Source: an uncultured Clostridia bacterium
Lineage (GTDB): Bacteria > Bacillota_I > Bacilli_A > RF39 > UBA660
DNA: 64,000 nt
Reading direction: 5' to 3'
NCBI GenBank assembly: GCA_947165945.1
Contig: CAMVCF010000002.1
Coordinates: 1,057-65,056, forward strand
The notes beneath the pieces were generated by a model. That model did not search any database, was not told where the DNA came from, and saw only the letters and a list, made by a program, of their open reading frames with translations. The position numbers and the translations under genes are program-made. Of the stretch, positions 1 to 28,310 are shown piece after piece; position 1 is the stretch's first letter, and every line of letters begins with the position of its first letter.

Positions 1-2
1 CA

Positions 3-704
3 AGTGGAACAGGGTATTTTATAAAATTTGATAAGACAAAAAGTGTATCTACAATACTCGATGAGATGCTAACAGAAAGTAATTCTAAAAATAATCCATC
101 AACAATACAAGGAGTAATAAATGATTGGTGGGGAACAGGAGGAGAAAATAGTCTTGAAGCAAAATACTCTGAATATTTAGAAGATACGGAATGGTGTAAT
201 GATAGAAGTATAGCAAGTTTAGGAGGATGGTCACCAACTGGAACTTTATATAGTAGTAGTTGGAAAGATTATTCAATTGTATTTAATGAAAGAGTAAGAT
301 ATGACCAGGAGGCATTTGGAAGTGATGCAAACAATATAAGAAATACAAATACCCCAATATTAACATGTAGTCGTCCTGTTGATAGATTAACTGTTGCAAA
401 TGGGAATTTAACATATCCAATTGGTTTGTTAACATATGATGAAGTTGCACTTGCTGGTGCAAGCTGGTCAAATGGAAATAGTAACTTTTACTTATATACA
501 TACCAATTTTACTGGCTTTTGTCGCCTTCTAATTTCAGCGGCGTCTGTGCTAATGTGGGCGACGTGTACTCGAGCGGCGATTTGAATGGCTATCGCGTGT
601 TCAATACTAACGGCGTTCGTCCGGCTCTTTCACTGAAATCTGGAACACAAATATTAAGAGGAGAAGGAACAAAAACAAAACCATATATCATAACAGAAGA
701 TTAA
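3..704 (+). CDS. Surface/secreted protein, C-terminal part only (5' end is outside the window), with a lectin-like C-terminal module ending in a GVRPALSLK motif
   Basis: The frame of track ORF 66..704 stays open back to nt 3, so M66 is internal. The C-terminal string YWLLSPS..A.V...G....NGVRPALSL resembles the YW.S(S/T)..A..V..G...VR.V signature of C-type-lectin/DUF1566-like folds. Terminator 784..832 follows. Confidence 0.7.
   Translation, partial: SGTGYFIKFDKTKSVSTILDEMLTESNSKNNPSTIQGVINDWWGTGGENSLEAKYSEYLEDTEWCNDRSIASLGGWSPTGTLYSSSWKDYSIVFNERVRYDQEAFGSDANNIRNTNTPILTCSRPVDRLTVANGNLTYPIGLLTYDEVALAGASWSNGNSNFYLYTYQFYWLLSPSNFSGVCANVGDVYSSGDLNGYRVFNTNGVRPALSLKSGTQILRGEGTKTKPYIITED
510..640 (+). 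other. A-depleted, GC-rich patch inside the CDS; candidate DGR variable repeat (VR)
   Basis: Hand count for 512..637 gives about 52% G+C and about 16% A, against AT-rich flanks. No codon ends in A between 512 and 629. All remaining A sit at codon positions 1 or 2 (aat agc gac tac gat tat act aac). The GC-rich 14-mer ggcgttcgtccggc closes the patch. Confidence 0.45.
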
Positions 705-783
705 TAAAAGATAAGGTGTTCCAAGACTTCTTCTAGGTATAAAGGCCAAAACCTATTTAAAAAATTTATAAATGCTAATATAA

Positions 784-832
784 AAACTGATAAATATGTC
801 ATAGTTAATAGTGATAATTTATCAGTTTTTTT
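784..832 (+). terminator. Rho-independent terminator
   Basis: Stem aaactgataaat (784-795) pairs with atttatcagttt (817-828), followed by a T-run. Confidence 0.7.
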
Positions 833-852
833 GATGTTCATATTTACAGTAG

Positions 853-4833: not shown

Positions 4834-5177
4834 TCTTTAAGAATTCCTACCATAGAACCAATTGTTGTAGTAATTAAAATAATTAAGTAATAAATAAGTT
4901 GTTGAAGTCTAAAACCTTTAGTAAATAGACTTATTAAAAAGAATAAAATAAGAATTATACTACCTAAAGTAAGTCCTTTTAAATATCCTTTATCTTTGGC
5001 TTGTTTGCCTATTTTAAATCCTGATAGGAAGCAAGATAAAATAATAGTTATAATTTTAAAATATTTAATTCCATTATTACTTAAGATATCAAAGTAGTAA
5101 AAAATGGTAATTATAAATAACAAAGAAAAAAATATAATTAAAAAGTAAAATAATGATTTTATATAATTAATTAACAT
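4824..5177 (-). CDS. Small integral membrane protein (about 4 TM)
   Basis: 117 aa, almost entirely hydrophobic helices. Confidence 0.5.
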   Translation of the reverse strand: MLINYIKSLFYFLIIFFSLLFIITIFYYFDILSNNGIKYFKIITIILSCFLSGFKIGKQAKDKGYLKGLTLGSIILILFFLISLFTKGFRLQQLIYYLIILITTTIGSMVGILKEKK

Positions 5178-26754: not shown

Positions 26755-27468
26755 ATGCAAAGATATTTTATAAAAGAAAAAGAAAATAATAAATTTAAAT
26801 TAAGTTTTGAAGACTCTTATCATATTACTAAAGTAATGAGAATGAATTTAAATAATGAAATAGAAATTGTTTATGATAAAGAAGTTTATATTGGAAAAAT
26901 TATTGAATTTAATCCAGTAGTTGTTGAAATAATAAAAAAATTAGATAATAACAATGAATTAAAAAGAAAAATTACCATTTGCCAGAGTCTAGTAAAAGAG
27001 CAAAAAATGGATTTAATTCTTCAAAAATGTACAGAACTTGGAGCTTATAGTTTTATCCCTTTTATGGCTTCTAATAGTATTATTAAAAAAGATCAAAAGA
27101 TGTTTTCAAAAAAAATTGAAAGATGGCAAAGAATTGTTAAAGAGGCAAGTGAACAATCAAAAAGAAATGTTATTCCAAAAGTTTTAGATATTGTTGATAT
27201 AAATAGTTTATGTAAGATGAATTATGATTTAAAAATATTTTGTACTGTAAATGAATTGTCAAGGAGTTTAAAAAATATTTTGCAAAATCAGTCAAAATAT
27301 GATACTATGATTATAGTAATAGGTCCTGAAGGTGGTTTTACTCAAATGGAAGAAAAACTATTAACTGAAAATGGTTTTTTAAGTGCTTCGCTTGGTAATT
27401 TAGTTCTTAGGACAGAAACAGCATCCATTTGTGCACTTAGCATGATAAATTACGAATATGAGAGGTGA
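26755..27468 (+). CDS. rsmE: 16S rRNA (uracil1498-N3)-methyltransferase RsmE
   Basis: The MQRYFI start is typical of RsmE, and the C-terminus has IVIGPEGGF...E......GF....LG..VLRTETA. RBS AGGTG. The track ATG at 26737 lies inside the -10 box. Confidence 0.85.
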   Translation: MQRYFIKEKENNKFKLSFEDSYHITKVMRMNLNNEIEIVYDKEVYIGKIIEFNPVVVEIIKKLDNNNELKRKITICQSLVKEQKMDLILQKCTELGAYSFIPFMASNSIIKKDQKMFSKKIERWQRIVKEASEQSKRNVIPKVLDIVDINSLCKMNYDLKIFCTVNELSRSLKNILQNQSKYDTMIIVIGPEGGFTQMEEKLLTENGFLSASLGNLVLRTETASICALSMINYEYER

Positions 27469-27473
27469 TTAAT

Positions 27474-28310
27474 ATGAACTTATTATTAAGTTTATTTACA
27501 CAAAAAGAGATTATGATTATTTTAACTGTTATAGGAAGTTTAATAGCTTTAGTTATTATTCTAACTATTTGGGATTTATTTTCAAAGAAAAAGAAAGATG
27601 ACGAAGATTTAGAAATTAATTTGAATGATCAAGAAATTACATTATCTAAAAATGTTCTTGAGGATAAAAAAGTAGAAACTGTAAAGGAAGAATTAGAGCC
27701 TACTTATTTGAAAGAAGAATTAAATCATCAAGAATTAGAACCCATCAATTTAAAAAATATTTCTGAAGAAGTTCAAAGTATAGAAGTAAATGAAGTTAAT
27801 TTTAAAACTCAGGAAGTAAAAGATCCACTTATTATGGAAATAGGGGAATTAGAAATAGATAATTTGGACAAAGAAGAAAAAGCAAAACAAAAACTTTTGA
27901 GAATTGAAGAAGAATTAGAAAATCCAAAATCTTTAGAAGATACTATTACATCTCTTGAAAAAATTGAAGAAGAAAATGCAATTATAAGTTATCAGGAATT
28001 ACTTGAAAATACAAGGGAAATGTCTTTAGTTGATGCTGATAGTGGAGATGAGCCAATATCTATTAAAGAAGTGTTTTCATTATATGAAGATGATAAAGAA
28101 TTAGAATCACCTGTAACTGATAATGCATATAAAGCTGACTTTACTAGTTCTCCATATATATCTCCTGTAATGGGATTTGAAAATGGAGAAATACCACTTG
28201 CTGAAATTCAACTAGAAAATACTGCTAATTTAGAAAAACTTGAAAAAGAAATTAGAAAAACAAATGAATTCTTAACAATTTTAAATGAATTAAAGAAGAA
28301 TCTTGATTGA
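27474..28310 (+). CDS. Hypothetical N-terminally anchored, glutamate-rich protein
   Basis: One TM helix is followed by about 230 aa of acidic, low-complexity sequence. Confidence 0.5.
   Translation: MNLLLSLFTQKEIMIILTVIGSLIALVIILTIWDLFSKKKKDDEDLEINLNDQEITLSKNVLEDKKVETVKEELEPTYLKEELNHQELEPINLKNISEEVQSIEVNEVNFKTQEVKDPLIMEIGELEIDNLDKEEKAKQKLLRIEEELENPKSLEDTITSLEKIEEENAIISYQELLENTREMSLVDADSGDEPISIKEVFSLYEDDKELESPVTDNAYKADFTSSPYISPVMGFENGEIPLAEIQLENTANLEKLEKEIRKTNEFLTILNELKKNLD

Follow-up and report, generated by a model that had tools for sequence, protein, structure and literature searches.

Diversity-generating retroelements (DGRs) write the variable repeat (VR) of a target gene from a template repeat (TR). 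In Faecalibacterium prophages (Lelie, CP11, Roos, and Pioen) and in the gut phages nd4 and nd12, whose targets are called tentaclins, the targets carry DUF6273, described as a C-type-lectin-like DGR target domain; the variable region maps to the C-terminal end of DUF6273 in the prophage targets and was modeled as a surface beta-hairpin in the tentaclins (PMC11792537, PMC10743442). These are phage tail or receptor-binding proteins encoded in compact cassettes with the reverse transcriptase (RT). In Treponema denticola, a DGR diversifies a cellular surface protein (TvpA) with a C-terminal lectin-fold VR, and there, as in other remote-target DGRs, several targets scattered in the genome are served in trans from a single TR adjoining the RT. 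A survey of 372 DGRs counted 45 with nonadjacent targets and 10 with targets more than 100 kb away (PMC5758913). Here we analyze a 64-kb stretch (the window) of contig CAMVCF010000002.1 from an uncultured low-GC bacterium (assembly GCA_947165945.1), which begins within a surface protein gene. Positions 513 to 623 of the window are very likely the VR of a DGR. The surface protein they belong to is membrane anchored and seems to end in a DUF6273 (C-type-lectin-like) domain, which holds the VR; we read it as a remote or recently orphaned target.

As in the prophage targets and tentaclins, the window VR falls at the end of DUF6273, here in a subthreshold match to the last part of the profile, and lies over strands of a structural model. 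Unlike them, it encodes a chromosomal, N-terminally anchored protein of ~620 to 645 amino acids (aa) among housekeeping genes, with no RT nearby and no match in IMG/VR or INPHARED. It resembles the T. denticola system in being a cellular surface protein with a C-terminal VR; the difference is that full and truncated TRs here adjoin the targets of relatives, with no RT within ~10 kb. With the DGR of Bordetella phage BPP-1 (mtd-avd-TR-brt) it shares TR-to-VR differences specific to adenine, a TR built on AAY codons, and a VR that closes a gene of (here probable) lectin fold; in both, the VR has a GC-rich element plus initiation of mutagenic homing (IMH) sequence, and the TR carries a divergent IMH* (PMC5758913). 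In contrast to BPP-1, no avd or RT is adjacent, no GC-rich hairpin directly follows the IMH (only an 8-bp inverted repeat with a 67-nt loop), and the TR runs on into what is left of a diverged C-terminal target tail. Neither DGRs nor DUF6273 targets nor remote targets are new, and a target without its own TR is ordinary. The window adds to them a chromosomal family of membrane-anchored surface proteins in uncultured low-GC Bacilli as very likely DGR targets. The target-attached TR units, a leader invariant in five contigs, truncated TRs, and an Rpn gene in two lineages are unusual and may represent a variant architecture.

An adenine-depleted patch in the target gene

Coordinates are positions in the window, nt 1 being its first letter, and codons were counted in the frame of the open reading frame (ORF) that stops at 702-704. 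Positions 512 to 637 contain 20 A, 31 C, 35 G, and 40 T, that is, 66/126 G+C (52.4%) and 15.9% A, in a window of 24.5% G+C and 39.9% A overall. When every 126-nt segment of the 64 kb was scanned, the highest G+C (0.524) began at nt 510, G+C of at least 0.48 was confined to the cluster 496-670, and A of at most 0.17 to the cluster 501-643, making the patch the single compositional outlier. No T-depleted cluster was present among the same segments; of the coding-strand letters, A is therefore specifically the one depleted.

The codons show the same signature. Between 513 and 626, none of the 38 codons ends in A and G+C at third positions (GC3) is 0.61; in the remaining 195 codons of the gene fragment, A at third positions (A3) is 0.49 and GC3 is 0.14. 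The chance of 0/38 A-ending codons is 0.51^38, or ~8e-12. TCA at 630 is the first codon that ends in A, and every A in 513-629 stands at codon position 1 or 2. On the DGR reading, low A and high G+C are to be expected, because invariant residues need A-free codons and because half of the template adenines have been replaced. The initial annotation, which read 512-637 as a DGR VR, had counted 66/126 G+C and 20/126 A, with no A-ending codon over 512-629 and all adenines at positions 1 and 2, and a recount reproduced these figures exactly.

A template repeat in close relatives

Metagenome contigs were scanned with the 5' anchor that VR and TR share, which gave three informative contigs. Downstream of close homologues of the target gene in the rumen metagenome contigs L031 and L032 lies a 111-nt, A-rich near-copy of the patch, the TR. 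An A-rich copy of the patch start also forms the end of L025, a Logan contig, ~195 nt past the stop of a 49%-identical homologue. In L031 (JGI Ga0247611), the target gene is followed by a terminator hairpin, an AT-rich spacer, an invariant leader, and the TR, which starts ~240 nt past the stop codon. This template (TR_L031) reads CGG CTT TTG TCG CCT TCT AAT TTC AAC AAC AAC AAT GCT AAT GTG GGC AAC GTG AAT TCG AGC GGC AAT TTG AAC AAC AAT AAC GTG AAT AAT ACT AAC GGC GTT CGT CCG, with 34 adenines in 16 AAY codons, one AGC, and one ACT. When all substitutions at A were enumerated, ~1.05e20 protein variants resulted and a stop codon was unreachable.

The window VR and TR_L031 are identical at 90 of 110 positions. 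Seventeen of the 20 mismatches fall at TR adenines and three elsewhere (Fisher p = 4e-8), and these three (nt 569, 587, and 602) are all third-position C/T differences, synonymous and of the AAC/AAT type. Mismatches to TR_L031 at TR adenines and at other sites, respectively, numbered 20 and 2 for the VR of L031 itself, 20 and 2 for L035, 16 and 2 for L037, and 17 and 0 for L025, with Fisher p <= 4e-8 for all five VRs. Among these five same-length VRs, 33/34 columns vary at TR adenines versus 9/77 elsewhere. The letters found at the TR adenines (A 80, G 43, T 35, and C 12) indicate replacement of A by any nucleotide rather than deamination.

Both ends of the repeat are conserved. All five TR units share the first 14 nt of the 5' anchor (GGCTTTTGTCGCCT) unchanged with the VRs of L001, L025, L031, L035, and L037, and codon 6 varies in some of the repeats that share them. 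At the 3' end, GGCGTTCGTCCG is common to VR and TR; all VRs then read GCTCTTTCACT, and the TRs continue with ATAGTAACACT (L031), GTAGTAACACT (L032), or TCTATCAATCT (L037). DGRs typically repeat GC-rich flanks in both TR and VR, and their VR ends in a GC-rich element with IMH where the TR has a divergent IMH* (PMC5758913); as aligned, the boundary and the diverging tails fit this canonical layout. The initial annotation had placed the IMH at a GC-rich 14-mer, within which VR/TR homology indeed ends (after nt 623), and its expectation of a near-copy differing at template adenines was borne out by the 111-nt repeat of the relatives, with 17 of 20 mismatches at TR adenines. The pattern thus supports its reading of 512-637, with the qualifications that the TR comes from relatives and that no RT was seen, and we hold with high confidence that the patch is a DGR VR. 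The closest GTDB match, L001 (79% aa identity), is ~95 to 100% identical to the window DNA on either side of the patch and ~50% identical within 528-611. Coordinates of all features are collected in Table 1.

Table 1. Features of the target gene and its VR in the window, and of TR units in related contigs
Feature	Position	Strand	Remarks
Target gene, 3' part, 233 codons + stop	3..704	+	Frame open from nt 3, stop 702-704
DUF6273 (PF19789), C-terminal match	495..641	+	Pfam profile positions 125-172 of 172
VR, 111 nt, 37 codons	513..623	+	Gapless, collinear with TR_L031
5' anchor, A-free, GGCTTTTGTCGCCTTCT	514..530	+	Identical in window, TR_L031, and TR_L032
Mutagenized core	531..611	+	34 TR-A positions in 18 codons
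TR-A positions, first part	531-2, 537-8, 540-1, 543-4, 546-7, 552-3, 561-2, 567-8, 573	+	By comparison with TR
TR-A positions, rest	579-80, 585-6, 588-9, 591-2, 594-5, 600-1, 603-4, 606, 609-10	+	By comparison with TR
14-mer ggcgttcgtccggc	612-625	+	GC-rich
GC-rich element GGCGTTCGTCCG + IMH-like sequence GCTCTTTCACT	612..634	+	TR homology stops after 623
Inverted repeat, 8 bp, perfect, TGGAACAC / GTGTTCCA	641-648 / 716-723	+	67-nt loop
Remnant of target-to-TR spacer	705..762	+	Alignment; blastn of window 1-753 to L037 and L031
Terminator-like hairpin, 14-bp perfect inverted repeat (782-795 / 817-830) + T run	782..836	+	Occupies the place of the TR module
Leader AGGGTTAAATCGTAAAAGGGA(A/T)CGCCTTCGG	L031 9196-9233	-	Directly 5' of TR; equivalents in L032, L037, L025, and L033
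Short TR, 48-nt internal deletion	L025 11077-11130; L037 3056-3118		Gap between TTC AAC AAC and AAC AAC AAT AAC
Diverged copy of family C-terminal tail after TR	L031 8987-9094	-	In frame, ...GVRPIVTLSADADISEGDGSYDTPYAIG...
Diverged copy of family C-terminal tail after TR	L037 3119-3199	+	In frame, ...GVRPSINLISEAKILSGTGTELDLYIVGM and stop
Rpn-family recombination-promoting nuclease / putative transposase gene	L031 7842-8735	-	Directly downstream of TR unit
Rpn-family nuclease / putative transposase gene	L037 3413-4276	+	Directly downstream of TR unit

Distribution of the patch and recent activity in relatives

The family survey covered 24 loci from GTDB genomes (L001 to L024), which are metagenome-assembled genomes (MAGs) of uncultured rumen and gut Bacilli labeled "Mollicutes," "Tenericutes," or "Clostridiales." An A3-depleted, GC3-rich patch occurs at the same place in nine or ten family loci, clearly in L001, L002, L003, L006, L007, L011, L012, L018, and L046 and probably in L014; the rest have ordinary codons there. 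In most assemblies the patch-bearing genes lie at contig ends, as would be expected for a repeated, polymorphic segment.

L031 and L035 (ENA ERZ27256846) are identical over ~1,560 nt of the gene and again past the VR. Nearly all of their differences fall in the VR, where L035 has the template CGG rather than TGG as its first codon, and the only others are one substitution and a 15-nt tandem indel upstream. A paralogue contig recovered from the same two data sets is identical at 5,169/5,170 nt, and its decayed VR (six A-ending codons) is the same in both assemblies, providing an internal control. L031 and L035 thus represent essentially one strain, and because they differ almost only in the VR, the DGR was recently active in these relatives. 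Such a strain comparison had been proposed in the initial annotation, and the pattern it anticipated was found in relatives rather than in the lineage of the window. L025 offers a second line of evidence: its gene flanks are 64% identical to the window in nucleotides, and its VR equals TR_L031 at all 76 non-A sites compared (positions 2-111), so the VR was overwritten from a template and not inherited with the gene.

Beside the VR, a 15-nt tandem unit AATAGTAACTTTTAC (encoding NSNFY; equivalent to window ~470-500) is double in L031 and single in L035 and the window, and L001 has a related extra KFYLY just upstream of its VR; the unit is a second, slippage-type length polymorphism. In L025 to L027, gene callers placed a 131- to 140-aa antisense ORF over the VR and gene end (e.g., L025 10707-11129, minus strand), most likely an artifact of a GC-rich, stop-poor island in AT-rich DNA.

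From the same metagenome as L031 and L032, L045 (7507-10260) encodes a 917-aa BspA-type leucine-rich-repeat (LRR_5) protein that ends in a 37-codon VR of the same kind (WLLSP...NGARP; 2/37 codons end in A). Origin of this VR from TR_L031 or TR_L032 was rejected, with 21 to 23 non-A mismatches. Since it fits neither TR, it has another template or is decaying, and either other templates or decaying VRs exist; the VR module is joined to different N-terminal architectures.

The target protein and its domain

The 5' part of the target gene lies upstream of the window. Full-length homologues are 617 to 645 aa long and have an N-terminal membrane anchor, as in the hydrophobic N terminus of the L031 protein (MDKKKTSLIGLIISILLFIIGVGVTFAAY), with which the window fragment shares 83% aa identity over residues 401-637 of 637 (238 aligned C-terminal residues). 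Against DUF6273, the fragment scored 21.1 bits (E = 3.1e-4), under the gathering cutoff of 23.5, with only the C-terminal third of the profile aligned. Seventeen of 31 family members match DUF6273 at E <= 1e-3 (best, 1.6e-6), and the full-length L031 protein had no match at E <= 0.01. An AlphaFold2 (AF2) model of the fragment (pLDDT 81) places the patch (aa 171-207) on strands 170-179, 182-188, and 194-198. The best Foldseek matches of this model were DUF6273 proteins, namely the DUF6273 domain of the Thomasclavelia ramosa IgA peptidase and phage DUF6273 proteins, and were weak (TM-score 0.26). These matches suggest that the target ends in a diverged form of DUF6273, a scaffold already documented in DGR targets. 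The lectin-like end that had been proposed from the translation thus gains a subthreshold match to a domain described as C-type-lectin-like; the lectin fold itself is taken from PMC10743442.

The arms of an 8-bp inverted repeat flank the stop codon together with the 20 codons before it. L031 and L035 have both arms as well, and they are spaced too widely for the usual hairpin after an IMH.

Searches for a template repeat and reverse transcriptase

No second copy of the patch and no TR was found in the window, either by blastn (down to word size 7, with relaxed scoring) or with TR and leader patterns allowing 3 mismatches. Neither a six-frame YxDD scan nor a Pfam search of the 20 RT-size ORFs (280 to 510 aa) found an RT in the window: the scan gave two matches only, at 45.1-46.2 kb inside a polysaccharide-synthesis cluster, and 19 of the ORFs had other identities, with one (27465-28310) having no match. 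The absence of both elements from the window had been noted in the initial annotation and is upheld by these searches. Rfam and tRNA scans of the window were empty.

Homology of the window to the target-to-TR spacer of L031 and L037 ends near nt 762, inside the relatives' terminator hairpin, and the TR module is absent. In its place is another terminator-like hairpin, which a consensus terminator scan did not flag because its stem is AT-rich. The next gene (904-2055) we take to be tgt, recognized from its translation. The initial annotation had listed a terminator and then tgt, and of these the hairpin is now located; it had also reasoned that a cassette must lie upstream of nt 1 or act in trans. 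In the relatives, the TRs lie downstream of their targets and not upstream; action in trans is something we infer.

Several points weigh against the interpretation of the window VR as a remote DGR target. The TR comes from relatives and not from the window's own genome, and the corresponding site of the window lacks the TR module. In most DGRs the TR directly adjoins the RT (PMC5758913), and the initial annotation had proposed a search for an RT and Avd within ~10 kb; none was seen at related loci, with up to 10 kb searched per side. Specifically, no DGR RT or Avd was seen in the window, the 24 GTDB loci, or the TR-bearing contigs L031, L032, L033, and L025, and the Pfam neighborhood tables of L025 to L027 and L034 to L048 contain no RVT or Avd. 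No RT occurs within 10 kb upstream of L001, L035, and L036, within 9 to 13 kb downstream of the TRs in L031 and L032, or anywhere in the L037 contig, which is complete at 11 kb. In the L031 strain, the zone without an RT covers ~10 kb on the upstream side (via L035) and the 9 kb that follow the TR. Between the window VR and TR_L031, moreover, three differences are at non-A sites. Finally, the evidence of ongoing diversification comes from relatives only.

Neither avd, HRDC, nor another accessory family appeared in the neighborhood tables, where the Pfam-scanned neighbors of unclear identity were cadherin-like, GNAT, IF-2, and similar; avd is absent from 26% of DGRs (PMC5758913). An A-tolerant ungapped scan for a TR in all the collected loci, made with ten VR-like patches, found only the window-to-L031 TR pair, and an apparent TR in L011 was rejected as a paralogous gene on the opposite strand. 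A phage or plasmid origin was also rejected: VR and TR had no blastn match in INPHARED or PLSDB, and IMG/VR scans with the protein, a two-anchor pattern, the 5' anchor, the leader, and the VR block of another lineage gave no relative, with two matches to the 5' anchor being chance occurrences in high-GC phages.

Structure of the template units

The ~30-nt leader directly 5' of the TR (AGGGTTAAATCGTAAAAGGGAWCGCCTTCGG) is invariant in five contigs, and the promoter-side sequence further upstream differs between lineages. No stable fold was predicted for the leader, and the whole TR unit folds no better than shuffled sequences (z = +1.66). The leader is a candidate recognition element for the missing RT. 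Behind the TR, a diverged in-frame copy of the family's C-terminal tail makes the unit look like a duplicated 3' end of a target gene.

L025 and L037 have short TRs with a 48-nt internal deletion, which we consider real since it was seen in independent assemblies, and each adjoins a full-length 111-nt VR. The VRs of L025 and L037 were therefore not templated by the neighboring TR. At one non-A site, moreover, the L025 VR agrees with TR_L031 and not with its own neighboring TR. Together, the short TRs and this site indicate that at least some VRs were written from a nonadjacent template.

The gene after the TR was considered as an RT and rejected, because it encodes an Rpn-family nuclease. The two Rpn-family proteins, 49% identical to each other, match TIGR01784 below its cutoff (E = 4e-13 and 4e-9). 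The TR tails of L031 and L037 differ, yet the Rpn gene follows the TR in both lineages; it could be a hitchhiking mobile gene, a cause of rearrangements in the TR area, or an accessory factor. In L033 (1-1500, minus strand), only ~70 nt of the TR are present before the sequence passes into an SNF2/DEAH-type helicase frame truncated at its 5' end; small ORFs come next, and at the contig end a serine-recombinase-like gene begins. This TR is probably an assembly chimera at the AAC-rich repeat or a mobile-element junction, and we did not use it as evidence.

Origin and present state of the variable repeat

By the established DGR pathway, the TR would be transcribed, and the DGR RT would copy it and misincorporate opposite adenines. 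The cDNA would then replace the VR, using the IMH at 612-634. Eighteen codons (16 NNY, NGC, and NCT) would be rerandomized, giving ~1e20 protein variants and never a stop, and the varied codons would lie on a beta-hairpin of the ligand-binding domain. Because the TR module is missing and no RT is found in the 63 kb downstream, the VR would be a remote target, with TR and RT elsewhere in the genome.

Whether the window VR is still serviced in trans is, in our judgment, an even question, and recent orphaning of the VR is somewhat less probable than that. A patch undecayed under strong AT pressure favors recent writing, and so do the three private non-A third-position differences, which match what a slightly diverged TR of the window's own lineage would produce. 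L037 (target-TR-Rpn-rnj-dnaG...) and L001 (dnaG...ftsK-target) have dnaG-rpoD-trmK synteny in common, and on this gene order a paralogue with its own TR might be located ~13 kb before nt 1.

The most serious alternative is that the VR is a fossil, written in the past and then frozen and slowly decaying after the TR module was deleted and the RT was lost or moved out of reach. Module decay does occur in the family, as the truncated TRs of L025 and L037 show, and L034 and P0036 keep their anchors but carry A-ending codons, the P0036 patch being identical in two assemblies. In the window itself, homology to the relatives' spacer stops at ~nt 762, with a different terminator and tgt next, and neither RT nor TR is present in the 64 kb. 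The patch, however, is undecayed, with 0/38 A-ending codons in a genome of 24.5% G+C, and differs from the relative's TR by only three third-position C/T changes, so any orphaning must have been recent; in addition, remote targets tens to hundreds of kb from their cassette are well documented (PMC5758913). We therefore consider a fossil plausible, though short of an even chance.

A second alternative dispenses with a retroelement and explains the patch as a segment that a higher-GC homologue or paralogue donated through recombination or gene conversion and that stays hypervariable under diversifying selection. It would account for the failure to find an RT, and recombining C-terminal halves are indeed common to the paralogues (alignments among L037, L001, and L031 are limited to the last ~1.25 kb). 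Divergence, however, is not uniform but concentrated in 33 of 34 TR-A columns against 9 of 77 others, A-rich AAY master copies adjoin homologous genes, the depletion is specific to A with T normal, and the donor genomes are themselves of 25 to 28% G+C. The A-specific pattern effectively refutes this explanation, which we regard as highly improbable. A third reading, in which RNA structure, a regulatory element, or a gene overlapping on the opposite strand constrains the nucleic acid, has a negligible chance of being correct, since the minus-strand ORF called over the patch in L025 to L027 is an expected artifact of a GC-rich island in AT-rich DNA, Rfam is empty in the window, the TR unit shows no favorable fold, and the A-to-N relation to the TR would be left unexplained.

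If the patch is a DGR VR, the low-GC Bacilli of rumen and gut may have a DGR of split architecture, in which TR units sit on individual targets, the RT lies more than 10 kb away or on another replicon, and one trans-acting RT serves the dispersed modules. Each unit would consist of the ~30-nt invariant leader, the 111-nt template, and the diverged remnant of the target tail, and several VRs would be written from a TR that is not their neighbor, including the TR-less window VR and that of L025, whose own neighboring TR is truncated and differs at a non-A site. We put this architecture forward tentatively and consider it rather doubtful.

Significance for the organism and the protein family

The window also contains a long same-strand cluster for cell-envelope polysaccharide synthesis (31040-54562), with a Polysacc_synt flippase, several GT2 and GT1 transferases, an O-antigen-ligase-like protein, a polysaccharide deacetylase, LytR-CpsA-Psr, UDP-GlcNAc 2-epimerase, a sulfatase-family protein, and MurJ. 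This cluster, with MurJ, indicates that the organism has a cell wall, despite the "Mollicutes/Tenericutes" labels of related MAGs.

A DGR VR can be recognized in raw AT-rich sequence by its codon signature alone, that is, by the lack of third-position A in a local G+C island. DGR finders that start from the RT miss remote and orphan targets, and the codon signature provides a way to find them. In known DGR systems, the template is encoded beside the RT. If TR units do work far from their RT, the way in which a DGR RT locates its template RNA could be studied in this lineage as a natural test case. For the organisms themselves, uncultured low-GC Bacilli of rumen and gut, the finding marks a large membrane-anchored surface protein family as binders of ligands that are hypervariable, with ~1e20 potential variants, and this hypervariability points to fast-changing interactions with hosts, phages, or neighboring cells.

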